Shown here: positions 1,384-30,540 of the stretch, piece by piece | Layout of the letters: the number at the start of each line of letters is the position of its first letter | How positions within the stretch are numbered: position 1 is the first letter of the stretch | Origin: a bacterium | GTDB taxonomy: Bacteria; Zhuqueibacterota; Zhuqueibacteria; Oceanimicrobiales; Oceanimicrobiaceae | Assembly (NCBI GenBank): GCA_046757025.1 | Contig: JBHHXN010000043.1 | Location: 1-34,382 of the forward strand | DNA: 34,382 bases | Reading direction: 5' to 3' | Notes under the pieces: generated by a model | What the model was told of the DNA's origin: nothing | Databases searched by the model: none | Seen by the model: only the letters and a program-made list of their open reading frames with translations | Made by a program: the position numbers and the translations under genes

Positions 1384-1412
1384 TTGACAATTAAACTCGT
1401 ATTAATTATATT
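1384..1412 (+). promoter_or_regulatory. sigma70 promoter of the aromatic supraoperon
   Basis: TTGACA (1384-1389), 17-nt spacer, TATATT (1407-1412); about 40 nt upstream of leader ATG. Confidence 0.85.
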
Positions 1413-1453
1413 GCCCACTTGTTAAAATTAAAACATCAAAACTAAATAAAATT

Positions 1454-1543
1454 ATGAACCGTATTCTTTCTACAAAGTATTATTGGCGTTATTGGTATTT
1501 TTTTAGCCATAGTGGGAAGAATACATCTGCAGGCCCGTCGTGA
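1454..1543 (+). CDS. Attenuator leader peptide MNRILSTKYYWRYWYFFSHSGKNTSAGPS (Tyr/Trp/Phe control codons)
   Basis: ATG 1454 to TGA 1541-1543; codons 9-17 encode YYWRYWYFF (8 of 9 aromatic); lies between promoter and terminator upstream of trpE. Confidence 0.9.
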   Translation: MNRILSTKYYWRYWYFFSHSGKNTSAGPS

Positions 1544-1584
1544 TAGAATAATATTCAATAACGCATTTGTGCTCAACCCACTAT
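1509..1584 (+). promoter_or_regulatory. Attenuator antiterminator hairpin
   Basis: ATAGTGGG (1509-1516) pairs with CCCACTAT (1577-1584), the 5' arm of the terminator; imperfect pairing continues in the same register between 1519-1530 and 1563-1574. Confidence 0.8.
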
Positions 1585-1614
1585 ACAAAAAACGTATAGT
1601 GGGTTTTTTATTTT
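1575..1614 (+). terminator. Intrinsic terminator (attenuator) upstream of trpE
   Basis: AACCCACTATAC-AAAAAAC-GTATAGTGGGTT perfect 12-bp stem running into TTTTATTTT; ends 13 nt before trpE ATG. Confidence 0.9.
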
Positions 1615-1627
1615 ATAGAGGAATTGA

Positions 1628-3103
1628 ATGTATTATCTACCATTTCGTGAATTTGAAGAGCTTTCGAAAAAGGGCAACGTCGTGCCCGTTTACGGTCGTT
1701 TTCTGGCTGATCTTTTGACACCGGTTTCGGCTTTTCTGCAACTGCAAACGGCTTCGAAGCGCGCCTTTTTACTGGAGAGCGTGGAAGGAGGCGAAAAAAC
1801 CGCCCGCTTTTCTTTTCTGGGTTGTCAACCGTTTTTGACGCTTCAGGCTGTGGAAACCGAAATTAAAATACAGCAAAATGGCCGGGTTGAAATGCTGCAG
1901 GGAGATATCTACGAATACCTGAAACAACTGTTTAGTAAATATCGGGCTGTGCACCCAGCCGAGTTGCCGCGCTTTATCGGCGGCGCCGTCGGTTATTTTG
2001 GTTACGAAACCGTGAAGCTGATTGAAAACCTCCCTGGAAACACGGTTACCCATTCTGACTGGCCCGATGCCTGTTTTATGCTTTTCGATTCGGTGCTGGC
2101 GTTTGACCATCTCACGCACCAAATCTACATCATCGCCAATGTCTTTCTGGAGGAGTCGTCCGATTCCCTACAAGCAAAATATGAAACCGCCCGAGCGAAA
2201 ATCGCTGAAATACAGAACATCCTTGTACGAGAAGCGGTAATTGAATCGCCCCCAAAATCGCCGAATTCAAAAGCCACTTCCAATTTCACTGAAGAGAGAT
2301 TTAAGCAAGCTGTGCTAAAGGCGAAAAAGTACATCGAGGCGGGCGACATTTTTCAGGTGGTGCTCTCGCAAAAATTTCAAAAAGAAATTCACGCTGCTCC
2401 GTTTGATATCTATCGTGCGCTGCGGGTGATCAATCCCTCGCCATATTTGTATTTTTTGCAGATGGATGATCTGTGCATTATCGGCTCGTCGCCGGAGCTT
2501 TTAGTGCGGGTGGAGGCCGGCGTCATCGACGTTCGGCCCATCGCCGGCACGCGCCCCCGCGGCCAGAATGAAGCCGAGGAGCAGCGGCTCATGCAGGATT
2601 TGCGTCACGATGAAAAGGAAACCGCCGAACATCTGATGCTGGTGGATCTCGGGCGCAATGACGTGGGCCGAGTCAGTGAGTATGGCTCGGTGGAAGTGAA
2701 TGAATTCATGAACATTGAAAAGTATTCGCACGTGATGCACCTGGTTTCCAATGTGCGCGGTAAAATGCTGGCCGGATACAGCGCCATCGATGTGCTGCGA
2801 GCCTGCTTTCCTGCGGGCACGGTCTCCGGTGCACCCAAAATCCGCGCTATGGAGATCATCAGCGAGCTGGAACCCGAGCGACGCGGCGTTTATGCTGGGG
2901 CATTGGGGTATCTCGATTTTTCTGGCAATTTAGATACGTGCATCGCCATCCGTACCATCATTACCTGTCATGGGCAGGCTTATTTTCAGGCTGGTGCCGG
3001 TATCGTCGCCGACTCGGCGCCGCAGAAAGAGTACCGCGAAACCATCCACAAAGCAGCTGCTTTGCAGGCCGCCATCGATTTTGCAGAAAGAGGTCTGGAA
3101 TGA
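1628..3103 (+). CDS. trpE: Anthranilate synthase component I
   Basis: LLES and NPSPY Trp-feedback motifs, PIAGTRPRG, EHLMLVDLGRND, PAGTVSGAPK; GAGGA RBS; first gene of trp cluster. Confidence 0.96.
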   Translation: MYYLPFREFEELSKKGNVVPVYGRFLADLLTPVSAFLQLQTASKRAFLLESVEGGEKTARFSFLGCQPFLTLQAVETEIKIQQNGRVEMLQGDIYEYLKQLFSKYRAVHPAELPRFIGGAVGYFGYETVKLIENLPGNTVTHSDWPDACFMLFDSVLAFDHLTHQIYIIANVFLEESSDSLQAKYETARAKIAEIQNILVREAVIESPPKSPNSKATSNFTEERFKQAVLKAKKYIEAGDIFQVVLSQKFQKEIHAAPFDIYRALRVINPSPYLYFLQMDDLCIIGSSPELLVRVEAGVIDVRPIAGTRPRGQNEAEEQRLMQDLRHDEKETAEHLMLVDLGRNDVGRVSEYGSVEVNEFMNIEKYSHVMHLVSNVRGKMLAGYSAIDVLRACFPAGTVSGAPKIRAMEIISELEPERRGVYAGALGYLDFSGNLDTCIAIRTIITCHGQAYFQAGAGIVADSAPQKEYRETIHKAAALQAAIDFAERGLE

Positions 3104-3705
3104 TTTTGATCATCGATAATTACGATTCGTTCACTTTCAACCTGGTGCAGTATTTAGGCGAGCTAAATGCAGAATTGCACGTGGTGCGCAATGACAAAAT
3201 CGATTTGGCGACGGTGAAACAGCTCAATCCTGCCGGCATGGTCATTTCGCCCGGACCGGGACGCCCGGAAAACGCCGGCATCTCGGTGGCGCTGATTCAG
3301 GAGCTGGCGCAGTTCATACCGATTCTGGGTGTGTGTCTGGGGCATCAAGCGCTGGCCGTGGCTTTTCATGGGCGAGTGGTACCGGCTCCGCTGCTGGTAC
3401 ACGGAAAGACTTCGAAGATTTATCATCAAAAGCAGGGAATTTTCAGCGGACTGGTAAACCCCTTTGTGGCCACGCGCTACCATTCGTTGGTGGTGGAGCG
3501 GGCTACCCTACCTGCAGAATGGCAGGTCACGGCTGAAACGGAGGATAAAATCATCATGGCCATACAGCACAGAACGTATCCTGCATTTGGAGTGCAATTT
3601 CATCCGGAGTCCATTCTAACCGTTGTTGGCAAAAAGCTACTGAAAAATTTTTTAGATATTTGTTCGAAATCAAAAGGAGCAAATGATGATTCAAGAAGCC
3701 ATTAA
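3100..3705 (+). CDS. trpG: Anthranilate synthase component II (glutamine amidotransferase)
   Basis: Start reassigned to ATG 3100 (ATGA overlap with trpE): MILIIDNYDSFT, SPGPG, GVCLGHQ, RYHSL, QFHPES. Confidence 0.95.
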   Translation: MILIIDNYDSFTFNLVQYLGELNAELHVVRNDKIDLATVKQLNPAGMVISPGPGRPENAGISVALIQELAQFIPILGVCLGHQALAVAFHGRVVPAPLLVHGKTSKIYHQKQGIFSGLVNPFVATRYHSLVVERATLPAEWQVTAETEDKIIMAIQHRTYPAFGVQFHPESILTVVGKKLLKNFLDICSKSKGANDDSRSH

Positions 3706-4705
3706 GACGGCGATTGCCGGCGAGAATTTATCCCGGCAACAGGCGCACGCAACTATGACCGCCATCATGCAAGGCGAAGCCACGCCGGCTCAAATCGCGG
3801 CGTTTTTGATCGCCGAAAAGCTGAAAGGAGAGACCTTTCAGGAGATCGCAGGCTTTGCTCAGGCCATGCGCGAGCAGGCGGCGCGGGTTGAAACCCGGCA
3901 CAAAAATGCCATCGACATGTGTGGCACGGGCGGCGATGGTTTGGGCACGTTCAACATCTCGACTGTGGCAGCCCTGGTCGTGGCTGCCGGCGGCGTACCC
4001 GTGGCCAAGCACGGCAACCGTTCGGTTTCCAGCAAAAGCGGCAGCGCCGACTTGCTGGAGGCGCTGGGGGTGAAAATCGACCTCAATGCCGAACAGGCAG
4101 GCGCCTGTCTGGAGGCGGTTGGGTTTGCATTTCTATTTGCACCAGTTTTGCATCCGGCCATGAAACATGCCACCGGACCGCGCAAGGAGATTGGCGTCCG
4201 AACCGTGTTTAACATTTTAGGACCGCTCACCAATCCCGCTGGGGTGAAACGACAAGTACTGGGGGTCTATGATGCGCAACTGGCGCACCTCATGGCCGAA
4301 GTGCTGCGCGAGTTAGCATCCGAGCATGTGCTGGTTATTCACAGCGAAGAGGGCATGGACGAGGTGTCCACGCAAAAGCCCACGCTGGTGGTGGAATTAA
4401 AACAGCAAAAAATCACTGAGCAAAAATTGCCGCCTGAAAATTTTGGCCGTTTCGAACAAAATAACGATGGCATCTTGGGCGGCTCACCGGCTGAAAATGC
4501 ACAAATTGCCTTGAATATTCTAAAAGGCGGCAAGAGTGCCGCCCGCGGCCTGGTGCTGGTCAACGCCGCCTGCGGATTTGTGGTGGGCGAAAAATGTAAG
4601 ACCTTTCTCGAAGGCACGGAGTTAGCCCGGCAGGCCATTGACTCGGGCGCCGCACTAGCCAAATTACAGGCACTCATTGAATTTACCAACGACGTCGCAT
4701 TATGA
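3683..4705 (+). CDS. trpD: Anthranilate phosphoribosyltransferase
   Basis: DMCGTGGDG, FNIST, KHGNRSVSSKSGSAD, RTVFNILGPL, GMDE. Confidence 0.96.
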   Translation: MMIQEAIKTAIAGENLSRQQAHATMTAIMQGEATPAQIAAFLIAEKLKGETFQEIAGFAQAMREQAARVETRHKNAIDMCGTGGDGLGTFNISTVAALVVAAGGVPVAKHGNRSVSSKSGSADLLEALGVKIDLNAEQAGACLEAVGFAFLFAPVLHPAMKHATGPRKEIGVRTVFNILGPLTNPAGVKRQVLGVYDAQLAHLMAEVLRELASEHVLVIHSEEGMDEVSTQKPTLVVELKQQKITEQKLPPENFGRFEQNNDGILGGSPAENAQIALNILKGGKSAARGLVLVNAACGFVVGEKCKTFLEGTELARQAIDSGAALAKLQALIEFTNDVAL

Positions 4706-5499
4706 AAACGATTTTAAATGAAATAGTCGGGCACAAAGCGGAAGAAATTCGTCTGCGCAAACAGAAAATGCCCGTTGCAGAGCTCTTAAGTTTGTGTCAC
4801 TATGTGCCTACGCCGCGTTCGTTCACAGCAGGATTGAAAGACGAGCCGACTGTTCAGGTGATCGCCGAAATAAAAAAAGCTTCTCCTTCGGCCGGGTTGA
4901 TTCGTACTGATTTCGTGCCGGAAGCGCTGGCAGAGGCTTACGAAAACAACGGCGCTCGTGCGGTCTCAATAATAACCGATGAAAAATATTTCCAGGGTAG
5001 TTTAAACCACATTCACTCGGTTCGTCAGGTGATCGAGCTGCCAATTTTGCGAAAAGACTTTATTCTAGATTCGTACCAGGTGGTGGAAGCACGGGCGTAT
5101 GGCGCTGACCTGGTGTTGTTGATTCTAAATTTACTGACGGATTCGCAATGCACGGATTTGGTGGACGCGGTACAGGAATTCCGCATGGAATTCCTGGTGG
5201 AGATTCATACACCAGCCGAGGTAGAGCGGGCAGTGAAAATGGGATTCAATTTGATCGGAATCAACAATCGCAATCTCGACACCTTTGAGGTGGATGTGGC
5301 AACCACTGATAAATTGCTGCAAGACCTCCCCCGGGAAATCACCGTGGTTTCGGAAAGCGGCATCAAAAACCGCCAGCATGTGCAGCGTTTGGGAGAATTG
5401 GGAGTTGATGCGGTGCTCATTGGAGAGACCCTCATGCGGCAAATTGATGTGGGAGCGGCGCTCACGCATTTTACAGGAGTCCCGAAATGGTCAAGATAA
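4702..5499 (+). CDS. trpC: Indole-3-glycerol phosphate synthase
   Basis: IAEIKKASPS, LRKDF, GINNRNL, VSESG, LIGE. Confidence 0.96.
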   Translation: MKTILNEIVGHKAEEIRLRKQKMPVAELLSLCHYVPTPRSFTAGLKDEPTVQVIAEIKKASPSAGLIRTDFVPEALAEAYENNGARAVSIITDEKYFQGSLNHIHSVRQVIELPILRKDFILDSYQVVEARAYGADLVLLILNLLTDSQCTDLVDAVQEFRMEFLVEIHTPAEVERAVKMGFNLIGINNRNLDTFEVDVATTDKLLQDLPREITVVSESGIKNRQHVQRLGELGVDAVLIGETLMRQIDVGAALTHFTGVPKWSR

Positions 5500-6113
5500 A
5501 AATCTGCGGCATCACCAATTATGAGGACGCACAAATGGCCTGCGCTCTGGGTGCCGATGCAATCGGATTTATTTTTTACCCGTCCAGTCCAAGATATATT
5601 CCACCGGCCGCCGCCAGCAAGATTATAAATAAATTACCGCCTTTTGTAACCAAAGTTGGGGTTTTTGTCAACATGCGTCTGAGCGAAGTGGAAGAGTTGG
5701 TTGTCACTTTAAACTTAAATTTAGTGCAGTTGCACGGCGAGGAGTCGCCTGAGTATTGCAGCCGGCTGGCCTTTCCTTGCCTGAAAGCGGTCCGGCTCCA
5801 GAAGGAATTCGACTTAGCACAGCTATCTCGGTTTAGGACAGCCGGGTTTCTGCTGGACACCTTTGATAATCAGCGTCTGGGCGGCACGGGAAAAACGTTT
5901 GATTGGAGCTTGGCCAGAAGAGCGGTCGGGTACGGACCCATCGTGCTCGCGGGTGGGCTTACAGCGGAAAATGTCGCACAGGCCATCCAAACCGCTGAGC
6001 CGTATGGTGTGGATGTTTGCAGCGGGGTGGAGGCCGCACCCGGCAAAAAGGATGCGCAAAAACTTGGTTTGTTCTTTGAAGAAATACGAAAGTACGAGCA
6101 AAATCATAAATAA
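5487..6113 (+). CDS. trpF: Phosphoribosylanthranilate isomerase
   Basis: KICGIT, SPR, QLHGEE, GGTGKTFDW, LAGGL, GVDVCSGVE. Confidence 0.96.
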   Translation: MVKIKICGITNYEDAQMACALGADAIGFIFYPSSPRYIPPAAASKIINKLPPFVTKVGVFVNMRLSEVEELVVTLNLNLVQLHGEESPEYCSRLAFPCLKAVRLQKEFDLAQLSRFRTAGFLLDTFDNQRLGGTGKTFDWSLARRAVGYGPIVLAGGLTAENVAQAIQTAEPYGVDVCSGVEAAPGKKDAQKLGLFFEEIRKYEQNHK

Positions 6114-6140
6114 TTGTGTTGATTGAATACTTATTCTTGA

Positions 6141-6300
6141 TTAGTGATTGAACGAAAACTCGAGAAATGCGCGATTTAAAAATCTCTTCGCGAATGAGTC
6201 CCTTCAACAAAGCTCAGGACAGGCCTCGCCGAGTCGAGTAGGAAATCACCCTCGGCAGGAGGCCTTCGGGAAGATTGGGTCGTTTTCGTTCAAACACTAA
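6141..6300. mobile_element. MITE-like element copy B (160 bp) between trpF and trpB
   Basis: Terminal inverted repeats TTAGTGATTGAACGAAAAC / GTTTTCGTTCAAACACTAA (18/19); interior aligns with reverse complement of 20236-20372. Confidence 0.8.
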
Positions 6301-6324
6301 TTATTTACTTTAATCGTTCAAATC

Positions 6325-7557
6325 ATGAAAAATCAACTTCACAAATTTTTACCCGATCGTAACGGCTATTTTGGAGAATACGGCGGCAAATTTATTCCAG
6401 AAATTCTGGTTCCGGCCGTCACCGAGTTGGAAGATGCTTACCAGCAATTATTCGAAGATGTGGATTTCCAAAAGGAGCTGCAAACGCTTTTGGCGCAGTA
6501 TTCTGGCCGGCCCACTCCGCTAACTTTTGCGGATCGTTTAAGCGGTCAGTTGAGTGGCGCCAAAATTTTTCTCAAACGCGAAGATCTGAATCATACCGGC
6601 GCGCATAAGATAAACAACGCCCTCGGCCAAATCCTTCTGGCGCGCTGGATGGGAAAAAAGCGTATCATCGCCGAAACCGGCGCCGGTCAACATGGTGTGG
6701 CAGTGGCCACAGTAGCGGCTAAATTTGGTATGCCCTGCCTGATTTACATGGGGGAAGAAGACATGCAACGGCAGAAGCTCAACGTATTTAGAATGGAACT
6801 CCTGGGAGCGCAGGTGGTGCAGGTGACCTCCGGCAGCCGCACCTTGAAAGACGCCATCAACGAAGCCATCCGGGATTGGGTCACCAACGTGTCGGACACC
6901 TTCTATTTGATTGGCTCGGTCGTAGGGCCGCACCCGTATCCGCGTATCGTGCGGGATTTTCAATCGGTTATCGGAAAGGAAACTCGCGAGCAATTCCTGC
7001 AACTGGCCGGGAAACTGCCGGAGCACATATTCGCGTGCGTGGGTGGCGGCAGCAATGCCATGGGGATGTTTTTTCCGTTTCTGGATGACCGCCCCGTAAA
7101 CCTGATTGGAGTTGAAGGCGGCGGTCACGGCGTGCCTTCTCAGCCCCATGCGGCGACGCTATGCGCCGGCCAACCCGGAGTCCTGCACGGCGCATTGACC
7201 TATTTGCTGCAAAACACCCACGGCCAGATCAAGCAGGCGCATTCTATTTCCGCCGGTCTGGATTACCCGGGCGTGGGCCCCGAACACAGTTTTTTGAAAG
7301 ACTCCGGCCGCGTGCAATACACGTCGGTTACGGACACAGAAGCTTTGCATGCGTTCTATTTGTTATCTAAAACCGAAGGCATCATTCCTGCTCTGGAAAG
7401 CGCCCACGCTCTGGCACAGGTCGTGAAAATGGCGCCGACGCTCTCAACTGAGGAAAGCATCGTCGTGTGCCTGTCCGGCAGAGGCGATAAAGATGTGGAG
7501 CTGGTAAAAGAGTTGGATGCAAAACATCCTGAATTGAACGTTTCATCAACCATTTAA
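6325..7557 (+). CDS. trpB: Tryptophan synthase beta chain
   Basis: [16 protein letters not shown] (PLP Lys), [36 protein letters not shown]. Confidence 0.98.
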
Positions 7558-7569
7558 TCAAACTCAAAA

Positions 7570-8370
7570 ATGAACAGACTGAAAAAGGTAATTCAAACGC
7601 AACTGCAGCAACGGCAAAAAGTGTTGTCGATTTACCTGACAGCGGGTTACCCAAAAATGGAGAGCGCCGTGGATTTAATTTGTACCGTGGCAGAAGCCGG
7701 CGCAGATTTTGTTGAGCTGGGGGCGCCGTTCTCCGATCCCCTGGCCGACGGACCCATCATTCAGCAGGCCTCGCAAACCGCGTTGGATAACGGCATGTCT
7801 CTCGCAGAGATTTTTTTGCAAGTAGAAAAAGTGCGGGAAAAAAGTGCCGTCCCCATCGTTTTGATGAGTTACTTAAATCCCTTATTATCCTATGGACTGA
7901 AAAATTTGATAAAGGTGGCCACCTCTGTGGGAATAGATGGATTCATCATTCCGGATCTCATTCCAGAAGAATTTACAAAATTCAAGGAGTCGTTTGCTAA
8001 TTCGGAACTGGGACTTAATTTTTTGATATCCCCGAACACACCGTCTGAACGCGTACGATGGATCGATAATTTGACCAGCGATTTCATTTATTGTGTCTCC
8101 GCTGTAGGCGTCACCGGCCCGAGGGGCGACATTTTTGGGGAGGTGGGTCCCTATTTAGACAGAGTGGCAAAATTAGTCAAGCACCCTTACTTTGTCGGGT
8201 TCGGGATTTCTTCTTCGGACGACGCACGCATGGTGGCGCCGCATTGTCACGGGGTGATTGTGGGCAGCGCTGTAATCGACATTATGGCAAAATGTTCTGA
8301 GCATGAAATCATGTTGAAGCAGGTGAAAACTTTCGTTAAAAACATTAAAAATGCAATAACTGGAGACTGA
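7570..8370 (+). CDS. trpA: Tryptophan synthase alpha chain
   Basis: ELGAPFSDPLADGPIIQ, GVTG, VGFGIS, GVIVGSA. Confidence 0.97.
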   Translation: MNRLKKVIQTQLQQRQKVLSIYLTAGYPKMESAVDLICTVAEAGADFVELGAPFSDPLADGPIIQQASQTALDNGMSLAEIFLQVEKVREKSAVPIVLMSYLNPLLSYGLKNLIKVATSVGIDGFIIPDLIPEEFTKFKESFANSELGLNFLISPNTPSERVRWIDNLTSDFIYCVSAVGVTGPRGDIFGEVGPYLDRVAKLVKHPYFVGFGISSSDDARMVAPHCHGVIVGSAVIDIMAKCSEHEIMLKQVKTFVKNIKNAITGD

Positions 8371-8371
8371 A

Positions 8372-8668
8372 ATGGATATTGAAGATTGGCGTACAAAAAT
8401 CGACGAAATCGATCTGAAATTGTTGAAGCTGCTCAATGAAAGAGCGCTTTATTCAATCGAAATCGGAAAAATCAAAAAACAGAAAGATCTGCCAATTTAT
8501 TCACCGGAAAGAGAAGTCGCCATAATCGCCAGGATGGTGCGCGAAAACAAAGGGCCGTTAGGCAATGACGGGGTGCGCAGATTGTTTGAAAGAATCATTG
8601 ATGAATCTCGCAAATTAGAGAAAGATTTTTTCTTGAAAAATAAAAATAATACAAAAAAGGAGAAATGA
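8372..8668 (+). CDS. Monofunctional chorismate mutase (AroQ class)
   Basis: WRTKIDEIDLKLLKLLNER, IGKIK, PERE, IIDESR pattern; 98 aa; operon context. Confidence 0.9.
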   Translation: MDIEDWRTKIDEIDLKLLKLLNERALYSIEIGKIKKQKDLPIYSPEREVAIIARMVRENKGPLGNDGVRRLFERIIDESRKLEKDFFLKNKNNTKKEK

Positions 8669-8669
8669 A

Positions 8670-9683
8670 ATGGTTGTGGTGATGGAAGAACACGCGACTG
8701 AAAACGACATTCAAAAAGTCATATCAAAATTGACTGAAATGAATTTTGATGTGCATCGTTCCACCGGCGTCAATCAAACCGTGTTAGGAGCCGTTGGCGA
8801 TAAGCGGGGGCTGGACACTCGCATCCTGGAACTGCTGCAGGGTGTACACAAAGTCATCCGGATTACCGAGCCGTTTAAATTGACCAGCCGTACCTTTCAA
8901 CCTCAAAATACCATCATTAAAATCAAAGACGTCGAAATTGGCGGAAACAAACTGGTGATGATGGCGGGCCCTTGTTCTGTGGAAGATGAGGTGCAAATTC
9001 GCAAAATTGCCCGTATCGTTCAAAAAGCCGGCGCCAAAGTGTTACGCGGGGGGGCGTTTAAACCGCGCACTTCGCCTTACAGCTTCCAGGGACTTGGCGA
9101 GGAAGGTCTGAAATATCTGCAAAAGGCCGCTCAGGAAAATGACCTGATCTGCATTTCCGAAGTGATGGAGAGCCAATACATTCCCATGATGGTTGAGTAC
9201 GTGGATATTTTGCAGGTAGGCGCCCGCAACATGCAAAACTTTTCGCTCCTGCGCGACCTGGGAAAAATTCACAAGCCCGTGCTTTTGAAACGCGGCATGT
9301 CTGCCACTATCGAAGAATTGTTGATGGCAGCGGAATACATCATGGCCGGCGGCAACTTCGAAGTGATTCTTTGCGAGCGCGGTATTCGCACCTTTGAGAA
9401 TTATACACGCAACACGCTGGATATCTCGGCCATTCCCATCGTGAAAAAATTAAGTCATCTGCCCATCATTGCCGATCCCAGTCACGCTACTGGCCGGCGG
9501 GACAAAGTGCCGCCCATGGCACGCGCAGCGGTCGCCGCCGGCGCCGATGGCTTGATAGTGGAGGTGCACCACAATCCCGAACTGGCGCTTTCGGATGGCG
9601 CGCAATCGCTCTACCCGGAACAATTTGAACAGCTCATGAAAGAGCTGGAAATCATCGCCCGCGCCGTGGATAAGCTCTGGTGA
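8670..9683 (+). CDS. aroF: DAHP synthase type I-beta with N-terminal regulatory domain
   Basis: [52 protein letters not shown]; about 65-aa N-terminal extension as in Thermotoga-type enzymes. Confidence 0.95.
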
Positions 9684-9689
9684 TTTTGC

Positions 9690-9718
9690 TTGCTACTTAC
9701 CGAGGAGTTGCGTATAAT
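9690..9718 (+). promoter_or_regulatory. Candidate internal sigma70 promoter upstream of tyrA
   Basis: TTGCTA (9690-9695), 17-nt spacer, TATAAT (9713-9718) in the 56-nt aroF-tyrA gap. Confidence 0.65.
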
Positions 9719-9739
9719 TTAAAAAATACGACTTGAAAA

Positions 9740-10837
9740 ATGAAATTTGAAAACGTGGCCATTGTTGGTCTGGGTTTAATCGGAGGTTCTCTGGCGGCGG
9801 CATTTAAGCGCAAAAAAGCGGTGGGGCATATCACTGGGATCGATTACGGCGAGGTAGTGGTCAAAGGTCAATCCATGGGTTTGATCGATCGCGGTTGTGC
9901 TCCAGAGCAGCTAGATAGGGGAGTAGCCGCAGCAGATTTGGTTATATTAGCCACGCCCATTTCCGATATTTTGAAATGGCTGCCAGAAGTGGGAAGTCGT
10001 GCCAAATCTGGCGCACTCATCACCGATGTGGGCAGCACCAAAGTTGCAATCACCGAATGTGCGGCGCAGCATTTACCTCCAGGGATTCACTTTCTGGGCG
10101 GACATCCCATGACGGGTGCTGAGCACCGGGGCGTGGCGCACGCGGATGCTTTTTTGTTCGAAAATGCGGTGTTTGTAATTACCGAAAATGACGTGGTTCC
10201 GGAAGACCTCGTTTATGGCTACGTCGAACTCTTAGAAAGCATCGGGGCGAAAGTCCTCTTTCTGTCTGCACATCTGCACGACAAAATCGCGGCGGTGGTA
10301 AGTCATCTACCGCAACTTCTGGCCATTACACTCATGAAATATGCCGCCGCGTGCAGCCAGCAAAATTCCGCTTATTTGAAATTGGCCGCGGGCGGATTCC
10401 GGGATATGACCCGGGTGGCTTCCAGTCCCTACGAAATCTGGCACGATATTTTAGCCACCAATCGCGACCACATCGATGGCGCCATTGAACGATTTATCAA
10501 GGAACTGGAAAATCTGCGCCGCTTGATGAATCAGAGCGAGCTGGAATCGGAATTTATCGCGGCGGCGCACAACCGTCTTTCCATCCCCACGGATACCCGC
10601 GGTTTCATCAAACCGCACTTCGACGTCACCGTGGTGGTGGAAGACAAACCCGGCGTAATTTCCTCCATCGCCGCCATTCTCGCTGAGCAAAATATCAACA
10701 TCAAAGACATCGAAATTTTAAAAGTGCGCGAAGGGGATGCCGGTACCCTGCGCCTGGCTTTCGAGAGCCGTCGCAACCGGCAGCAGGCCATGCAATTGCT
10801 CTCATCCAGCGGCTATCAGGTCTCAAAACGAGAATGA
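9740..10837 (+). CDS. tyrA: Prephenate/arogenate dehydrogenase with C-terminal ACT domain
   Basis: GLGLIGGS, DVGSTK, GGHPMTG, HD..VSHLPQL, GFRDMTRVA; ACT-like EDKPGVISSIAAILAEQNINI. Confidence 0.94.
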   Translation: MKFENVAIVGLGLIGGSLAAAFKRKKAVGHITGIDYGEVVVKGQSMGLIDRGCAPEQLDRGVAAADLVILATPISDILKWLPEVGSRAKSGALITDVGSTKVAITECAAQHLPPGIHFLGGHPMTGAEHRGVAHADAFLFENAVFVITENDVVPEDLVYGYVELLESIGAKVLFLSAHLHDKIAAVVSHLPQLLAITLMKYAAACSQQNSAYLKLAAGGFRDMTRVASSPYEIWHDILATNRDHIDGAIERFIKELENLRRLMNQSELESEFIAAAHNRLSIPTDTRGFIKPHFDVTVVVEDKPGVISSIAAILAEQNINIKDIEILKVREGDAGTLRLAFESRRNRQQAMQLLSSSGYQVSKRE

Positions 10838-10858
10838 GTTGAAATCGGGATTCCCATC

Positions 10859-12142
10859 ATGGACCAGATCATTTCTCCTGCCAAATATCTTTCAGGTTGC
10901 ATCCGGCTTCCGGGCGATAAATCCATTTCGCATCGTGCGTTGATGATGGCAGCCATTGCCGAAGGTACGACAGAAATCGAAAATCTTTCTACCGGAAAAG
11001 ATGTGCAAAGCACGGCTAATTGCCTGCGTCAGTTGGGGGTTAAAGTGAAACAAAAAGCAGGGGTGGTTCAGGTGGTTGGCAGAGGATTAGACGGTTTGGT
11101 CAAACCGGATGCGACCCTCGACGTGGGCAACTCTGGTACCACCATGCGTTTACTCGCGGGTATTTTAGCCGGGCACGCGTTTACTTCAACCATCCGAGGC
11201 GATGCTTCTATTCAGCGGCGCCCAATGTCTCGCATCGTCAAACCATTACGGCAAATGGGAGCCGATGTACAAGCTGTGAAAGGGGAATTCGCTCCCCTGA
11301 GGATCACGGGCGGGAATTTGCGCGCCATTTCTTATCGCATGCCGGTGGCCAGCGCACAGTTGAAATCCTGTATTTTGTTCGCCGGCCTGTACGCCGACGG
11401 CACCACTGAAGTCATCGAGCCTTCCCTTACCCGAGATCATACCGAAAGGATGCTGCAAACATTCGGTGCGCAATTGAACAAAGACGGTCTCAAATCGTCC
11501 GTTTCAGCTCGGCCGCAATTGCGGGCTCAAAAAATATTCGTTCCGGGTGATTTATCGTCTGCGGCCTTTTTTATCGCCGCCGGCATTCTGGGAGCTGAAT
11601 CTGAGCTGCTCATAGAAAATGTGGGAATAAACCCGACTCGCAAAGCTTTCCTGACGATTCTGTGTGACCTGGGGGCGCGGATTGAAATTATCAATGTGGC
11701 CAGCATGAACAATGAACTGGTCGCGGATATTCTTGTACAAAGTTCAAAATTAAAGGGCCTCCGCATTCCTCCGGAAAAGGTACCACAAGTGATCGACGAG
11801 CTGCCCGTGCTGGCGGTGTTGGCTACGCAAGCTGAGGGCTCCACAGAAATCCGCGGAGCCGGCGAACTGCGATTTAAAGAGTCAGATCGCTTGCGAGCGG
11901 TATCCCGTAATTTGCATAAAATGGGCGCCGAGGTTGAGGAGTTAGAGGACGGTTGGATCGTTCATGGACCGGTGCAATTACAAGGTGCTGAATTGGACAG
12001 TTACCACGATCATCGCATCGCTATGGCTTTTACCGTGGCCGCACTCACGGCCCGCGGTCCCTCAAAAATCCGCCATGCCGACTGTGCCCAAATCAGTTTT
12101 CCTGAATTTTATGACCTTCTCCAAAGGGTTCGAAATGATTGA
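10859..12142 (+). CDS. aroA: EPSP synthase (class II-type motifs)
   Basis: PGDKSISHR, GNSGTTMR, SAQLKS, RDHTE, NPTR, KESDR, DHRIAM. Confidence 0.97.
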   Translation: MDQIISPAKYLSGCIRLPGDKSISHRALMMAAIAEGTTEIENLSTGKDVQSTANCLRQLGVKVKQKAGVVQVVGRGLDGLVKPDATLDVGNSGTTMRLLAGILAGHAFTSTIRGDASIQRRPMSRIVKPLRQMGADVQAVKGEFAPLRITGGNLRAISYRMPVASAQLKSCILFAGLYADGTTEVIEPSLTRDHTERMLQTFGAQLNKDGLKSSVSARPQLRAQKIFVPGDLSSAAFFIAAGILGAESELLIENVGINPTRKAFLTILCDLGARIEIINVASMNNELVADILVQSSKLKGLRIPPEKVPQVIDELPVLAVLATQAEGSTEIRGAGELRFKESDRLRAVSRNLHKMGAEVEELEDGWIVHGPVQLQGAELDSYHDHRIAMAFTVAALTARGPSKIRHADCAQISFPEFYDLLQRVRND

Positions 12143-13016
12143 GCAAACCCCGATTTTGCTGGCTTTGATCGGAGATCCGGTGCAGCACTCAGTTTCGCCG
12201 TACATGCATTCCTTTTTTTTACATATTCTCAAGCGGCCGGGCTGTTATCATCTATTTCCCACCAAAAAGGAAACACTTGCTGAGGTCGTTGCGGGTATGA
12301 AAGCGCTAAGTTTCAGCGGGTTTAATATCACCATCCCGCACAAAGAAACCATCCTGCCATTATTGGATGAAATCGACGCCGATGCTCAAACCATCGGAGC
12401 GGTGAATGCGGTGGTCATTCGAGACCGAAAACTGTTTGGATTTAATACGGACTGCCTAGGATTTGCCCGGGTTTTAAACCACCATCAGGTGCAAATCCAA
12501 AACCAATCGGTGGTGGTGTTAGGCGCGGGCGGAGCTGCCAGAGCGGTATGTGTGCATTTAATTCGGGCAGGCGTCAAAAAAATCGACCTTTTTAATCGCA
12601 GCCAAATTCGCATGATACAACTGCAGACTTCGTTGACACGTAAAACCGGCTTTACTCGCTTTTCTCTCAATGAACTGTCCGACTCGAGTCTTGATCAGGC
12701 GCTCACCCACAGCCAGGTGATCATCAACACCACTTCTGCCGGCATGTGGCCGCAAATTGAAGACAGCCCATATTCATTTGAAATCGATGGCGCCGGCCTT
12801 GTGGCAATTGATTTGATCTACAATCCACTGGAAACCGCCTTTTTACGGGCAGCGAAACATGCCGGCGCAAGCATCATCGATGGACTGGATATGTTGATTT
12901 TACAGGGGGTGGCATCTTTCAAACTCTGGACGAACTGTTCAATTGATTTAAAAATGAATTATTCTAAATTAAGAACACTTTTAATAAAAAGACTAACCGT
13001 AGATGGCACGAATTAA
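12135..13016 (+). CDS. aroE: Shikimate dehydrogenase
   Basis: Start reassigned to ATG 12135 overlapping aroA end: GDPVQHSVSP, NITIPHK, GAVN, NTD, GAGGAAR, DLIYNP, GLDMLILQG. Confidence 0.94.
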   Translation: MIEQTPILLALIGDPVQHSVSPYMHSFFLHILKRPGCYHLFPTKKETLAEVVAGMKALSFSGFNITIPHKETILPLLDEIDADAQTIGAVNAVVIRDRKLFGFNTDCLGFARVLNHHQVQIQNQSVVVLGAGGAARAVCVHLIRAGVKKIDLFNRSQIRMIQLQTSLTRKTGFTRFSLNELSDSSLDQALTHSQVIINTTSAGMWPQIEDSPYSFEIDGAGLVAIDLIYNPLETAFLRAAKHAGASIIDGLDMLILQGVASFKLWTNCSIDLKMNYSKLRTLLIKRLTVDGTN

Positions 13017-14199
13017 ATTTTTAACCGCCGGGGAATCTCACGGCCTGGGGCTGGTGGGAATTATGGAAGGTCTGCCAGCCGGCTTGACAATCAGCGAAGA
13101 AGAAATTTACCTCGAGCTGCAGCGTCGGCAAAAGGGACATGGCCGGGGCGGACGCATGAAAATTGAATCCGATCGCGCTCAAATATTGTCCGGGGTGCGA
13201 TTTGGAGAAACCACCGGCGGCCCCATCGCACTCTTAGTAGCCAACAAAGACTGGAAGAACTGGCAGGGAAAAATGTCGGTCGAGCCCATTATCCAGCCTG
13301 TGCAAAAGGTGACGGTGCCACGACCAGGACACGCGGATTTGGCCGGCGCCATCAAATACGGCCATGCAGATATTCGCAATGTTTTGGAAAGGGCCAGCGC
13401 CCGGGAAACTGCCATGCGCGTCGCGCTGGGCACTATCGCCCGAAAATTACTGGCGGAATTCGATATTAAAATTGTCAGCCACGTGGTGCAAATTCATTCA
13501 GTGAAAAGCGAGTTTAGCGCTGTGAAGGCCGGCAAACAAGACACCTGTTCCGGAATTCGACTGGATAGAATCAATCACCTGGCAGAGGCTTCTCCCGTAC
13601 GCTGTTTGGACGACGCGCTTTCCCATAAAATGATGGCCGTCATCGACGAAGCCAAAAAACAAAAAAACACTGTGGGCGGCGTATTTGAAGTGATCGCCCT
13701 GAATCTGCCGGTGGGATTGGGAAGTTATGTGCACTGGCACCGCAAACTGGACGCCCGTCTGGCCCAAGCGGTCATGAGCATCCCCGCCATCAAAGGCGTG
13801 GAAATCGGCGCCGGCTTTGAGTCAGTCGGGGAATTTGGTTCGCAGGTGCACGATCCGATCTACTATGATCAGGAAAACCAAAACTACTACCGCTCGCGCA
13901 ATTCTGCAGGCGGACTGGAAGGCGGCGTCACCAACGGCATGCCGCTGGTTGTGAGGGCGGCCATGAAACCGATTTCCACGCTCATGCAGCCGCTGGATTC
14001 CGTGGATATGCACACGAAAGAAAAAACACCAGCACACATCGAACGCAGCGACGTGTGCGCGGTTCCGGCCGCTTCGGTCATCGGCGAAGCGGTGGTCGCC
14101 CTGACTCTGGCAGACGTTTTCGCCGAAAAATATGGTGGTGATTCTCTTTCTGAAATGCAGTCAAACTACCAGGAGAGCCGCAAGCGCGCCCATGGCTGA
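13003..14199 (+). CDS. aroC: Chorismate synthase
   Basis: TAGESHG, RPGHADL, ERASARETA, SIPAIKGVE, GGLEGG, MKPI, RSD. Confidence 0.97.
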   Translation: MARIKFLTAGESHGLGLVGIMEGLPAGLTISEEEIYLELQRRQKGHGRGGRMKIESDRAQILSGVRFGETTGGPIALLVANKDWKNWQGKMSVEPIIQPVQKVTVPRPGHADLAGAIKYGHADIRNVLERASARETAMRVALGTIARKLLAEFDIKIVSHVVQIHSVKSEFSAVKAGKQDTCSGIRLDRINHLAEASPVRCLDDALSHKMMAVIDEAKKQKNTVGGVFEVIALNLPVGLGSYVHWHRKLDARLAQAVMSIPAIKGVEIGAGFESVGEFGSQVHDPIYYDQENQNYYRSRNSAGGLEGGVTNGMPLVVRAAMKPISTLMQPLDSVDMHTKEKTPAHIERSDVCAVPAASVIGEAVVALTLADVFAEKYGGDSLSEMQSNYQESRKRAHG

Positions 14200-14719
14200 G
14201 AAAAATATTTACCTCGTTGGATTTATGGCGTCCGGCAAAACCACGGTCGGCCAAATATTGGCGCGAAAATTAAACAGAAGATTTATCGATACCGATGCGC
14301 TCATCGAGCAAGAAACGGGCTTGACTATATCTGCTGTTTTTCAAAACAAAGGCGAGATTTTTTTCAGAGAACTGGAACAGGAGGTGGTTAAAAAAGTGGC
14401 ACAGGAAACGGGCGCGGTGGTTGCCATGGGAGGGGGTGTGGTGCTGAAACTGGAAAACTGGTCATGCATTCAGAGCAGCGGTATCTCAATTTATCTGAAA
14501 TGGCCGTTACAGTACTTGCTGCCGAGGTTGGTGCAAACCGATTCGCGACCGTTGATTCATCATACGGATCCGATAAAACGAATTGCGGCCCTTGAAAAAT
14601 TGTTCACCGAGCGTCAGGCGTTTTATGAAAAAGCCGATTTTACCATCGTTTGTAAACCTCATTTTACTCCGGATTCATTAGCAGCTAAATTGATCTTGCG
14701 GTTAAAAGAAAGTTTATGA
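14192..14719 (+). CDS. aroK: Shikimate kinase
   Basis: Start reassigned to ATG 14192: NIYLVGFMASGKTT (Walker A), DTD, GE.FFRELE, GGG, RPL. Confidence 0.94.
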   Translation: MAEKNIYLVGFMASGKTTVGQILARKLNRRFIDTDALIEQETGLTISAVFQNKGEIFFRELEQEVVKKVAQETGAVVAMGGGVVLKLENWSCIQSSGISIYLKWPLQYLLPRLVQTDSRPLIHHTDPIKRIAALEKLFTERQAFYEKADFTIVCKPHFTPDSLAAKLILRLKESL

Positions 14720-15576
14720 AAAAAATATTGATCATTCACGGACCCAATTTGAATCTCCTGGGAGAGAGAGAGCCTGAAATTTATGGGCATCTTCCACTGG
14801 ATGACATCAATCACACCCTCGTCAAGTTTGCAGAAAACATGCAAATCAGCACCAAAACCTTTCAGACTAACCACGAAGGTCAGCTCATCGATTTCATTCA
14901 TGACCACCGCAAATGGGCCGACGGTGTGATTATAAATCCAGGGGCGTTTACGCATTATAGCTACGCCCTCCGGGATGCCATTGCCGCGGTTGACTTGCCC
15001 ACGGTAGAAGTTCATTTGTCAGACATTCAAAAACGGGAAGCGTTTCGCAGACACTCCGTGATCAAGGATGTGTGCGTAAAACAAATCTCTGGTCTCGGAC
15101 ATGTGGGCTATTTGCGCGCTTTGGAATATCTTGTCGGTCACCACGTGGTTCAGGTCATTGCTCAGACTAAATTAACCATTAGGGATTTCGACCAGATTTT
15201 GAAAGAAGCCGTTAAATTATTAAAAGACCGTTTTCCAAAATATTCCTGGGTGGGAATTTATCTGGTACAAGGTCCGGAATTAGTGCTGCACAACTATTTA
15301 GGCAAGCCAACTCCGCACCGGCGAATTCCCATCGGCAAAGGCATTTGCGGGGCGGCTGTTGCCGAGAAACAAACGATCCTAGTTCAGGACGTCAACGCCG
15401 ACCCGCGGTATCTGGCCTGCAGCCTCGAGACACAATCAGAAATGGTGGTGCCTATCTGGAAAGGCAAATCCATCGTTGGCGAGATCGACATCGATAGCGA
15501 CTTGCGGGATATTTTTCATGACGGTGATCGTGAAATATTAGAAAAATGCGCGGGAATGTTATCCGACATTTTTTAA
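14716..15576 (+). CDS. aroQ: Type II 3-dehydroquinate dehydratase fused to C-terminal fRMsr-like GAF domain
   Basis: Residues about 1-140: HGPNLNLLGEREPEIYG, INPGAFTHYS, EVHLS; residues about 155-286: WVGIYL, GKGICG, YLACS, SEMVVP, GEIDIDS. Confidence 0.92.
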   Translation: MKKILIIHGPNLNLLGEREPEIYGHLPLDDINHTLVKFAENMQISTKTFQTNHEGQLIDFIHDHRKWADGVIINPGAFTHYSYALRDAIAAVDLPTVEVHLSDIQKREAFRRHSVIKDVCVKQISGLGHVGYLRALEYLVGHHVVQVIAQTKLTIRDFDQILKEAVKLLKDRFPKYSWVGIYLVQGPELVLHNYLGKPTPHRRIPIGKGICGAAVAEKQTILVQDVNADPRYLACSLETQSEMVVPIWKGKSIVGEIDIDSDLRDIFHDGDREILEKCAGMLSDIF

Positions 15577-24557: not shown

Positions 24558-26657
24558 ATGCATTCACGTAAACAGACAAGCATTCAACTGATTGCCGCAT
24601 TTGTTTTACTGGGAATCCTGATTTTTTTTGATTTCCTTTTTTATTTAAACGGTAAATTTCCTGCAGGCGTCAAATATTTACGGGAAATATTTATCCTGAT
24701 GACGATGACGGCCTTCTATCCTGTCATTAAAAGGAACCGTTTCATTGAAAACAAAGACGTCTTGACGAAATTGAAAGGTCTCTACATTGCGATTGCAGGG
24801 ATTTATACCAGCTACGTGCTTTTAAAAATCGGTTTAGGACCCATTTCTCGAATCATCAAAATCAAAAGTCGCTCCCCCGACATTTTATTTGGCTCGTTTG
24901 GGTCTTTTTTTTACAGCATGATTTTTTCACTTTTTACTGCGGTGATTTTGATCAACGCATTTTTGCTCCTGAAGGATCTTATTTTTATTAAAAGAAAACG
25001 TTCATCCTCGCGAAATTTTATCCTGCTGGTGAGTTTTTTGTGTCTGCACATTGTCATTGTAAATTTAAAAGAATTGACGCTGCCCTCTAATTTTCATTTG
25101 TTTCGTAATGAAATGGTCGGCGAGACGATTTTTTATATTTTAATCGTGTTGATGGTGGTGAACTCCTTCCGCAATTCGTGGGTGAATTATTTAAACAAAA
25201 GTCAAAAGATAAACTGTCTGTGGCTTGGCATTCCTTTGTTTGTGGGTGCGATTATCCTGGAATCGTATATTATTCGCGATCCGGCTTTGCAAGCGTACAG
25301 CGTTTCCCTGGCCGGTTTAACCGAAAACATGGGTCTTTTCTTGAATATTTATATAGGAATGAGCTTTATTAGCTTGTTGCTGCACCTGCCAACCGCAGGC
25401 ATTTTTGATCGCAAAATACGCGAGATTGAATCATTACACGATTTAAGCCGTACACTACCCTTTGTATTTGATTCAAACAAAATTATACAAATAATCACAA
25501 AAAATGCTGCCGCCGCCATGAACTCTGATGCATTGTGGTTGCAGATGACGGAAACCCCTTCCAGGTCGTCGCAAGTACTGACCTCCTCGAGGATAAAAGG
25601 GCACAATACTCTTGCTTTGCAGCAAAAGCCGGCTGATGAATTGGATGATTGGATCGTGCAAAACAAGCAATCGGTATTGATAAATGAAACGGCGAAAGAT
25701 CCCCGATGTGAGTCCCTGAAAAAATGGCATCATAGTATAAATTCCATTGTGGGTGTCCCGCTGGTTTCGAAAAATGGCGTTACTTGTATTTTATATTCCG
25801 GTAAAATCGAAACTTTTGCTTATGATGAAGAAGATCGAATTTTGCTGCAGGCGTTTGCCAATCAGGCCTCCATTGCGCTGGAAAATGCGCGATTGATGGA
25901 GGAATTGGTGGCAAAAGAGCGATTTGAACAGGAGCTGAAAATCGCCCAGGATGCACAAAAAAAGTTGCTGCCCAAAAGCATGCCGCGCATTCGCGGGTTG
26001 GACGTGGACGCCATAAGCATCACGGCCAATGAGGTAGGAGGGGATTACTATGATTTCTACAAACTGGAAGAGAAATTGGCCGTCGCAGTGGGCGATGTCT
26101 CCGGCAAAGGTGCGAAAGCCGCCTTCTACATGGCGGAATTGAAGGGAATCATCGAATCGTTGAGCAACATTTACACTTCACCAAAAGAGCTGATGGTCCA
26201 TATAAACCAATCCCTGTGCCGAAATTTAGATCGAACCTCTTTCATCAGTCTAATTTATTCGATCATCGATCCGATAAAAAAAGAGCTGATATTTGCCCGG
26301 GCCGGTCATTGCCCGCTGTTGATTTGCTCTGGAAAGAATGGGGAAACGCAATTTTTAGAGCCGCCAGGGTTGGGGCTGGGGCTGGAATACAGTGTCCTAT
26401 TTGCTGAAACTCTCGTGGAGGAAAAACTCAAACTAAATACAGGGGATGTTTTGATTTTTTACACCGATGGGGTGATCGAAGCCAGAAATGTGGAAAAAAA
26501 GGAATTTGAGCAGAACCGTCTTAGAAAACTGGTCGCTGAAAATTATCGCTCGAGCGCTTCGCAGATCAAAGAGTTGTTGGTCAAAGAAATACAAGATTTT
26601 GTAGGAAAAGCAAAATCTCACGACGATTTAACTTTTATTGTGGCAAAAGTCAATTGA
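24558..26657 (+). CDS. Multi-TM GAF-PP2C (SpoIIE/RsbU-type) phosphatase
   Basis: About 8 hydrophobic segments in first 280 aa, GAF ending ANQASIALEN, PP2C motifs VGGDYYD, GDVSGKG, YTDG, HDDLT. Confidence 0.92.
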   Translation: MHSRKQTSIQLIAAFVLLGILIFFDFLFYLNGKFPAGVKYLREIFILMTMTAFYPVIKRNRFIENKDVLTKLKGLYIAIAGIYTSYVLLKIGLGPISRIIKIKSRSPDILFGSFGSFFYSMIFSLFTAVILINAFLLLKDLIFIKRKRSSSRNFILLVSFLCLHIVIVNLKELTLPSNFHLFRNEMVGETIFYILIVLMVVNSFRNSWVNYLNKSQKINCLWLGIPLFVGAIILESYIIRDPALQAYSVSLAGLTENMGLFLNIYIGMSFISLLLHLPTAGIFDRKIREIESLHDLSRTLPFVFDSNKIIQIITKNAAAAMNSDALWLQMTETPSRSSQVLTSSRIKGHNTLALQQKPADELDDWIVQNKQSVLINETAKDPRCESLKKWHHSINSIVGVPLVSKNGVTCILYSGKIETFAYDEEDRILLQAFANQASIALENARLMEELVAKERFEQELKIAQDAQKKLLPKSMPRIRGLDVDAISITANEVGGDYYDFYKLEEKLAVAVGDVSGKGAKAAFYMAELKGIIESLSNIYTSPKELMVHINQSLCRNLDRTSFISLIYSIIDPIKKELIFARAGHCPLLICSGKNGETQFLEPPGLGLGLEYSVLFAETLVEEKLKLNTGDVLIFYTDGVIEARNVEKKEFEQNRLRKLVAENYRSSASQIKELLVKEIQDFVGKAKSHDDLTFIVAKVN

Positions 26658-26831
26658 TTTTCTTATATTTACTAAATTTTAAAAAATGTTTGTTGCAGGG
26701 TGGATTGATTTATTCAATAGAATTCTGCAAAATTGGGTGTGCAACAGTTGGGTTGCAGCAGGCTGAAACCTGAGCACCCCTCCGTAATTTCATTTTACAG
26801 AAGCCTATTATTCATTGTAAAGGAGGATTAA

Positions 26832-27182
26832 ATGGAAGGGTTTGAAGTTACTAAGAGTGAAAATGATGGAATCTCGATATTATACATTAAGGGATACTTA
26901 GATGCCCATACTGCACAGGATTTGGAAAACGCCTTTCAGCAATTAGTTGACGCCAAAAAATATAATATTGTGGTAAATTTCAAAGATTTAAATTATATAA
27001 GTAGCGCGGGTCTGGGAGTGTTCATGGGTTTTATTGAAGACATTCGCAAGAATGGTGGAGACATTAAATTGACAAATATGAAACCGAAAATATACCGAGT
27101 CTTTGATCTTTTGGGATTTCCAACGCTATATGACATTTTGGAAGAAGAAGAGAAAGCTTTGTCGAAATTCAAGGTATTGTAA
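26832..27182 (+). CDS. STAS anti-sigma factor antagonist (RsbV/SpoIIAA-like)
   Basis: AGGAGG RBS; GYLDAHTA, YISSAGLG (phospho-Ser motif), FDLLG. Confidence 0.93.
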   Translation: MEGFEVTKSENDGISILYIKGYLDAHTAQDLENAFQQLVDAKKYNIVVNFKDLNYISSAGLGVFMGFIEDIRKNGGDIKLTNMKPKIYRVFDLLGFPTLYDILEEEEKALSKFKVL

Positions 27183-27247
27183 ATCAGACAGGGTGTTGAT
27201 TATGAAATTAGAAGACAAAAATAAGAATTCAATGGTGCCCAAAAAAG

Positions 27248-27724
27248 GTGGTGAATATCTTGCCTGAGAAGATTCAAAACAAATACCATTTAAAATTGCC
27301 CAGCCAATCCGAAAATCTGTCGATTGTTCGAGAATTGGTGGCAAAGGTGGCTAGTAAAGTCGGATTTAATAAAGATGATGTAAGCAAAATAGAATTAGCT
27401 GTGGATGAAGCTTGCGCAAATGTCATCAAACACGCTTATGGAAAAAATTCTAAAAATTTTATCGATGTCATCATCAAAATTGATAACAAGAAATTAATGG
27501 TGACCGTCACCGACAGCGGAAAAGGTTTCAACCCGAAAGACATTAAAATTCCGGACATGAAAGACTATTTGTCTGAAATGCGGGTGGGAGGACTCGGTCT
27601 TTATTTAATAGAAACATTGATGGATAAAGTCGACTTCAATGTCAAACCCGGAATTAAAAATCAAGTTAAAATGATCAAATATCTGAATAAAGGTCAGTCT
27701 GGAAAGCAGGCCGTTTCAAGTTAA
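27248..27724 (+). CDS. Anti-sigma factor / serine kinase (RsbW-like HATPase)
   Basis: LAVDEACANVIKHAY (N box), DSGKGF (G1), GGLGLYLI (G2); start could be TTG 27260. Confidence 0.92.
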   Translation: MVNILPEKIQNKYHLKLPSQSENLSIVRELVAKVASKVGFNKDDVSKIELAVDEACANVIKHAYGKNSKNFIDVIIKIDNKKLMVTVTDSGKGFNPKDIKIPDMKDYLSEMRVGGLGLYLIETLMDKVDFNVKPGIKNQVKMIKYLNKGQSGKQAVSS

Positions 27725-30537: not shown

Positions 30538-30540
30538 AGA

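Follow-up and report, generated by a model that had tools for sequence, protein, structure and literature searches.

Which aromatic amino acids govern entry into a combined tryptophan, shikimate and tyrosine operon? The window, a 34,382-nt stretch of bacterial DNA, raises this question where a short leader rich in aromatic codons precedes trpE. An earlier note, made from the sequence alone, had proposed that one leader integrates the charging of all three aromatic tRNAs. Our best explanation is a ribosome-mediated transcription attenuator in which Trp and Tyr are the main inputs and Phe is probably a weaker third, a reading to which we assign a probability of roughly two in three. At the level of sequence, the anatomy of the leader, its conservation, its covariation and the agreement of its Tyr codons with operon content lend good support to ribosome-mediated attenuation that takes more than one aromatic input.

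Architecture of the trpE leader

A sigma-70-type promoter candidate (TTGACA-17-TATATT) lies on the plus strand at 1384 to 1412, with 11 of 12 matches to the consensus. In 31 of 32 homologous leaders, a promoter match of at least 9/12 lies no more than 110 nt from the leader start; in shuffles the proportion is 17%. The leader ORF on the same strand (29 codons; 1454 to 1543), recognized from the sequence and its homologues, has no Shine-Dalgarno sequence visible upstream of its start on inspection. Codons 9 to 17 (1478 to 1504) read YYWRYWYFF, that is, four Tyr, two Trp, one Arg and two Phe codons in conserved slots. This aromatic run is more than chance: in a genome-wide census of 45,931 short ORFs, 104 contain at least six aromatic codons in 10, only the leader ORF contains eight, and, under the rule used in the census, it alone among the aromatic-rich ORFs is followed by a terminator. 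The folding z-score of the leader is -3.15.

Three competing helices can be drawn in this transcript, all on the plus strand. In the MFE structure of the nascent transcript, and as a consensus helix, segment 1 (1461 to 1473) forms 13 pairs with 1512 to 1524 and encloses the control codons in the loop. This 1:2 helix, for which a pause and anti-antiterminator role is predicted, was overlooked in the earlier note, and it would complete a trpL-type layout. Segment 2 (1509 to 1524) lies within ORF codons 19 to 24 and supplies either the 3' strand of the 1:2 helix or, through 1509 to 1516, the 5' strand of the antiterminator, which has eight perfect pairs with 1577 to 1584 and an imperfect inward extension. 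The latter stretch, segment 3, is common to the antiterminator and the 5' arm of the intrinsic terminator, which with its U tract occupies 1575 to 1614. The terminator stem (1575 to 1605) has 12 pairs, 5 of them G-C, and a loop of 7, with a U run at 1604 to 1609 plus 1611 to 1614. By sequence, a Shine-Dalgarno-like site of trpE follows at 1617 to 1622, outside the terminator stem. The promoter, the 29-codon ORF with its YYWRYWYFF run, the 12-bp terminator with a U tract and the mutually exclusive antiterminator had all been described in the earlier note, and each was borne out at these positions.

Other arrangements were rejected. Translational attenuation was set aside because the trpE ribosome-binding site is outside the hairpins. 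A long helix between the control codons and the stretch after the stop codon involves a region that is unconserved in relatives, and it was therefore treated as specific to this genome.

We modeled the stall window by folding with four ribosome footprints masked in turn, reaching 9, 12, 14 or 16 nt from the P site. With the ribosome at codons 11 to 15, the probability of the antiterminator is 0.94 to 0.98 for all four footprints. The corresponding values are 0.18 to 0.94 at Tyr9, 0.77 to 0.98 at Tyr10, 0.62 to 0.98 at Phe16 and 0.14 to 0.98 at Phe17, and 0 for a ribosome at codon 20 onward; one Phe codon of this leader is thus within the modeled window and the other is borderline. In this folding model, then, a stall at the control codons frees the antiterminator and further movement blocks it. 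The same masking turns the antiterminator on across the aromatic block in 29 of 31 homologues and off two codons further on. The aromatic block stops abruptly at the modeled edge: across the 20 supraoperon leaders, none of the 140 codons in the next seven slots is aromatic. For the full transcript at equilibrium the terminator always wins, so the choice between antiterminator and terminator must presumably be kinetic. The equilibrium model also gives the antiterminator in the absence of any ribosome in 13 of the 31 homologues, and in 2 of them it does not produce the antiterminator at all.

In the mechanism that we propose, transcription would start at about 1419, and the 1:2 helix would form and make RNA polymerase pause; a ribosome that opens the helix would end the pause. 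A stall at codons 9 to 15 (Tyr, Trp or Arg), and probably at Phe16, would leave segment 2 available for pairing with segment 3, and transcription would continue into trpE-aroQ. A ribosome that has moved past about codon 18 to 20 would cover segment 2, the terminator would form and transcription would end near 1610. Since segment 2 is inside the ORF, switching off would be set by the position of the ribosome in mid-ORF rather than by its arrival at the stop codon. We infer the pausing at the 1:2 helix, the translation of the leader and the response to uncharged tRNA.

Rfam gave no match for the leader region at the gathering score and nothing meaningful at E values up to 10, where the best relevant hit was the trpB motif RF04312 (20.4 bits versus 59). 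Four leaders searched with the NCBIfam leader-peptide HMMs matched no family at E values up to 10, and neither TrpR, a TRAP gene nor a T-box RNA was found in the 95%-complete genome. A genome-wide scan of tRNA genes lists two for tRNA-Tyr and one each for tRNA-Trp and tRNA-Phe, plus a selenocysteine tRNA.

Leaders of related genomes and their operons

Two named relatives of TyrA come from candidate division KSB1, which makes KSB1/Zhuqueibacterota the likely lineage; both names appear together in PMC11683472. Within the phylum, trpE is present in 102 of 167 genomes, this one included. We examined the loci of 80 of the 101 other genomes and this one (81 loci), leaving out two unpublished genomes, contig-edge or partial hits and a number of distant loci. 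Leaders were sought in the 69 loci where trpE heads its cluster; in the other 12, trpE sits within a different gene order. A leader was called where a short ORF had at least two Trp codons in its best 12-codon window, and by this rule, which favors aromatic windows and so inflates absolute counts in every group, 64 of the 69 loci have one: 20/20 trp+aro+tyrA supraoperons, 28/31 clusters without tyrA and 16/18 truncated loci.

On a trpE tree built by a quick method, 32 loci of families f1, f2, f3, f8 and f10 form one clade (SH-aLRT, 95) and share the terminator core. We aligned 31 homologous leader RNAs, omitting G018 as a near copy of G002. The antiterminator covaries at six pairs, with 24 cells changed on both sides (0/500 shuffles) and 78% pairing versus 34 to 46% in slid controls; the terminator has 41 cells changed on both sides (0/500 shuffles); and the 1:2 helix covaries more weakly (15 cells, 4/500 shuffles; slid controls, 45 to 64%), all of these controls being inflated by kinship among the aligned homologues. 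The antiterminator strand and the terminator arm vary in step across families. As judged by eye, gaps in the coding part 5' of segment 2 are multiples of three, with the exception of a 1-nt shift directly before segment 2 in G002, G018 and G019, and across five families the frame stays open and the aromatic block keeps a fixed register to segment 2. The conserved aromatic codon runs and covarying stems that the earlier note would have looked for upstream of trpE in relatives are both present, and in sequence the promoter, leader ORF, antiterminator and terminator are conserved, the 1:2 helix less clearly so.

Tyr codons track the content of the downstream operon. At least two are present in 19/20 supraoperon leaders versus 4/28 leaders of operons without tyrA, counts that include kin and are not independent. 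Of the 180 control-zone codons in the 20 supraoperon leaders, 71 specify Tyr, which is kept through both of its codons (62 TAT and 9 TAC), 56 specify Trp and 15 specify Phe; the 36 control codons of four homologous leaders from trp-only operons include 9 for Trp, a single one for Tyr and none for Phe. No Tyr codon occurs in the leaders of the three clusters in which trpA is followed by aroF alone. The exceptions are the supraoperon leader of G012, with one Tyr codon, and the leaders of G107 and three f18 genomes, which have two or three Tyr codons ahead of clusters without tyrA; a metagenome locus (L148) is a similar counter-case. The f18 leaders (L127, L128 and L129) are Trp runs ending in Tyr, located ahead of trpEG alone or of a trp-only operon.

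The Tyr-poor leaders of trp-only operons fall at several places in the 32-locus clade (G158; G032; G049; and G058 with G037). Supported branches yield four independent pairs; averaged over pairings, 3.9 of the 4 link Tyr to the supraoperon and none points the other way (P = 0.125, where fewer than six pairs cannot reach 0.05), on a tree that cannot separate gain from loss. Tyr is a second amino acid whose codons lie within the predicted control zone and appear matched to operon content.

Beyond these genomes, a trpE scan of genome contigs gave five distant loci (Omnitrophota, Opitutales and Puniceicoccaceae), and a metagenome scan that covered 1 of 64 parts gave distant trpE sequences of at most 56% identity. 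Eight of 68 loci with upstream DNA, a set that includes the distant Omnitrophota, Opitutales and Puniceicoccaceae loci and is too small for more independent contrasts, have a leader followed by a terminator, and one of the eight precedes a supraoperon (two Trp, three Tyr and two Phe codons). Among families f7, f9 and f11 (L062 to L068), several trp-only leaders have tandem terminator-like hairpins ahead of trpE, as seen by eye.

Phenylalanine as a possible input and the competing readings

Among codons other than Trp and Tyr, Phe makes up 15/53 in the control zone versus 30/415 outside it. It also exceeds the other one-step neighbors of Tyr codons in the zone (Phe, 15; Ser, 2; Cys, 1; His, 3; Asn, 3; Asp, 0), and this excess, together with the enrichment, argues for selection or tolerance. 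The slot of Phe16 is Tyr in 15/20 supraoperon leaders, so Phe16 is likely inside the control zone, while Phe17 occupies a relaxed edge slot. The idea that both Phe codons are too near segment 2 to count was rejected for Phe16 on the basis of mask folding and slot conservation. By eye, 5/20 supraoperon leaders have no Phe in the control zone (slots 0 to 9); G017 and G013 provide examples of Phe-free supraoperon leaders. At least one Phe is found in 17/20 supraoperon leaders versus 14/28 leaders of operons without tyrA, and at least two in 9/20 versus 6/28, so Phe separates the operon types poorly; in the independent pairs it goes with the supraoperon in 2.7 to 3.0 of 4. No Phe-specific gene is present in the operon. 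Phe is probably a genuine input to the trunk pathway, although a minor and optional one. The proposal of one leader integrating three aromatic tRNAs therefore stands for multiple inputs, through anatomy, conservation, covariation and the Tyr-operon match, and holds in part for Phe, which is enriched in the zone but missing from 5/20 leaders, poor at separating the groups, placed at the 3' edge of the window and without a gene of its own.

Of 31 relatives searched for pheA, 25 gave a hit, in each case on a separate contig. Among 13 pheA loci of the same family, of which one is masked, one partial and two are fusions, 7 have their own Phe-rich ORF followed by a hairpin, judged by eye, and a U run. 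In family f1, the Phe-rich leader ORF and hairpin are conserved in L093 to L100 (pheA of G018, G005, G006, G013, G001, G011, G002 and G004); some of these leaders mix in Tyr codons, and they are a separate candidate attenuator family. The pheA gene of the present genome (L071/L146, on contig C151) has a terminator-like hairpin directly upstream and is followed by an aminotransferase-like gene. Its leader ORF contains two Trp codons and a single codon each for Phe and Tyr, with no clear Phe run.

How equal are the inputs? If the attenuator were fully trivalent, Phe limitation would derepress it as strongly as Trp or Tyr limitation. The Tyr-favoring slot of Phe16, its modeled antiterminator probability and the 15 Phe codons far above other neighbors of Tyr codons fit such a reading, as does the fact that DAHP synthase, the shikimate genes and chorismate mutase also serve Phe synthesis. 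We nevertheless consider it unlikely, because Phe accounts for only 15/180 control codons (Tyr, 71; Trp, 56) and is lacking in a quarter of the leaders, Phe17 is borderline, Phe flanks Trp runs in operons without tyrA as well, and pheA is elsewhere, often with its own Phe-rich leader. At the other extreme, Trp codons alone would count, as in an ordinary Trp attenuator, with Tyr and Phe codons kept for a U-rich, weakly structured RNA or by drift. The two-Trp rule did find leaders in 64/69 loci, every aromatic codon begins with U, the f18 leaders carry Tyr without tyrA, and the Corynebacterium glutamicum aroR leader indicates that Tyr codons can be silent (accessible text of PMC11802643). This reading is somewhat less probable again: leaders of the same terminator family without the aro/tyrA block have a single Tyr among 36 control codons against 71/180, at several separate places in the trpE tree, and Tyr is retained through both TAT and TAC.

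The remaining alternatives change what is sensed or whether the ORF is read. One is nascent-peptide arrest of the TnaC type, in which a free aromatic metabolite would be sensed within the exit tunnel, or a response to the A37 modification of the tRNA instead of its charging. The aromatic control codons all start with U, and the tRNAs that read them belong to the MiaA-modified class. An E. coli miaA mutant derepresses pheA, according to the accessible portion of PMC3082878. Against peptide arrest, base pairing explains the conservation beyond the aromatic block, the order of aromatic residues varies freely, and G002, G018 and G019 keep the segment 2 nucleotides in a shifted frame, so that conservation at segment 2 does not concern the encoded peptide sequence. 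Sensing of tRNA modification would amount to a secondary input to the same switch rather than another switch. We regard this pair as improbable. Least probable of all is an untranslated RNA switch controlled by a protein or ligand, or a fixed terminator, with the ORF incidental. It agrees with the lack of a Shine-Dalgarno sequence at the leader start and the dominance of the terminator at equilibrium, but it does not account for a frame and an aromatic register kept across five families, and neither an Rfam match at the gathering score nor TRAP or a T-box was found.

The Trp-plus-Tyr attenuator may be extended to a broader proposal that we hold tentatively, a little short of even odds: all three aromatic tRNAs would be read with graded weights (Tyr, Trp, then Phe), the codon list would have been recast time and again as the trp operon acquired or shed the aro/tyrA block, and pheA would keep a separate Phe leader. 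If true, graded reading would make this a sensor programmed by its codons, with inputs that change in evolution along with operon content, and a member of the very small group of leader-peptide Tyr sensors, for which direct evidence is thin (one mixed report and a few predictions). The lineage offers matched natural variants on one RNA scaffold, with Trp-only, Trp+Tyr and Trp+Tyr+Phe leaders matching gene content, and this series makes the weight per codon number and position directly testable. It also bears on how regulation follows operon fusion or loss and on the design of a compact aromatic amino-acid biosensor.

Known systems and the surrounding genes

The leader resembles E. coli trpL (RF00513) in having a Trp-codon ORF before trpE, 2:3 and 3:4 helices together with a predicted 1:2 helix, and an intrinsic terminator (accessible text of PMC1183508), as well as an Arg codon beside a Trp codon. 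Unlike trpL, it has nine control codons dominated by Tyr, no Rfam match and no TrpR found in its genome; segment 2 is within the ORF, the 1:2 loop encloses the control codons, and a 15-gene trp+aro+tyrA cluster lies downstream. The thr and ilvGMEDA leaders of E. coli carry a multivalent mix of codons. Both operons are described as attenuated in the available part of PMC1183508. They share with the present leader the use of codons for more than one end product, but here the products are aromatic rather than aspartate-family or branched-chain amino acids, and the likeness is drawn without a sequence comparison.

The closest mixed precedent is the experimentally studied aroR leader of C. glutamicum, which encodes Phe-Tyr-Phe before aroF, a DAHP synthase gene (PMC11802643, PMC4046766 and PMC7356990, each as far as accessible). 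One of these sources, a review, reports no Tyr response in its accessible text (PMC11802643), so the presence of a codon does not prove a response; another source describes control by Phe and Tyr. Like our leader, aroR mixes aromatic codons ahead of a DAHP synthase gene; unlike it, aroR has no Trp codon and is separate from the trp operon. Predicted systems include an "attenuator sensing tyr-tRNA" at Shewanella aroF (PMC2659441, Table 3), uORFC-13-1 at Acholeplasma aroF (PMC8632094) and putative attenuators before tyrA supraoperons, including that of Desulfovibrio vulgaris (PMC1173090, Table 7). In the accessible portions of these sources, the predictions likewise concern Tyr or shikimate genes, and one supraoperon adjoins the trp operon, but no leader with both Trp and Tyr codons and no match between codons and operon is described. 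The accessible text of PMC3082878 and PMC4833913 contains no mixed aromatic leader. The papers open to search yielded no Trp+Tyr leader, no three-way leader and no attenuator in this phylum, in agreement with the earlier note, whose author knew of no characterized three-way aromatic attenuator. The mechanism is classical, and the mix of Trp and Tyr codons is new relative to that literature.

All 15 genes downstream (1628 to 15576) are on the plus strand: trpE, trpG, trpD, trpC and trpF (1628 to 6113), trpB, trpA, a chorismate mutase gene and the DAHP synthase gene aroF (6325 to 9683), and tyrA (prephenate dehydrogenase-ACT), aroA, aroE, aroC, aroK and aroQ (9740 to 15576). We infer that they are co-transcribed, although a repeat splits trpF from trpB and a promoter-like site stands ahead of tyrA. 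The repeat, a palindromic element at approximately 6131 to 6300 on the plus strand, is likely MITE- or REP-like, and blastn of the genome returns some 70 nearly full-length matches to it; it spans about 160 nt, folds strongly (z, -3.8) and has partial copies near positions 1 to 70 of the window. The candidate internal promoter (9690 to 9718, plus strand; 10/12 matches) has a counterpart of at least 9/12 between aroF and tyrA in 4/16 relatives, all of family f1, and may partly uncouple tyrA-aroQ from the leader or give basal expression. Both aroB and pheA are absent from the supraoperon and located on other contigs.

The aroQ gene (14716 to 15576) encodes a type II dehydroquinase with a C-terminal domain of about 140 amino acids, which by eye we take to be GAF-like. 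In every full-length supraoperon relative that extends as far as aroQ, a match to this domain comes after aroQ, usually with lon next. Further downstream, positions 24558 to 31897 hold a cluster read by eye as partner-switching genes, with several PP2C-like phosphatases bearing GAF or receiver domains, an anti-sigma antagonist and an anti-sigma kinase.

Two further loci of this genome resemble leaders, their downstream genes being named by eye. On contig C6 (L144, 231 to 341), five His codons stand in a row within an ORF of 36 codons, and a terminator and then a hisG-like gene come after it; this candidate His attenuator suggests use of the leader-peptide strategy elsewhere in the organism. 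On contig C36 (L145, 209 to 334), a short ORF with three consecutive Cys codons and a fourth, followed by a hairpin and a U run, lies about 250 nt before a cysteine-synthase-like gene and is a candidate Cys leader-peptide attenuator.
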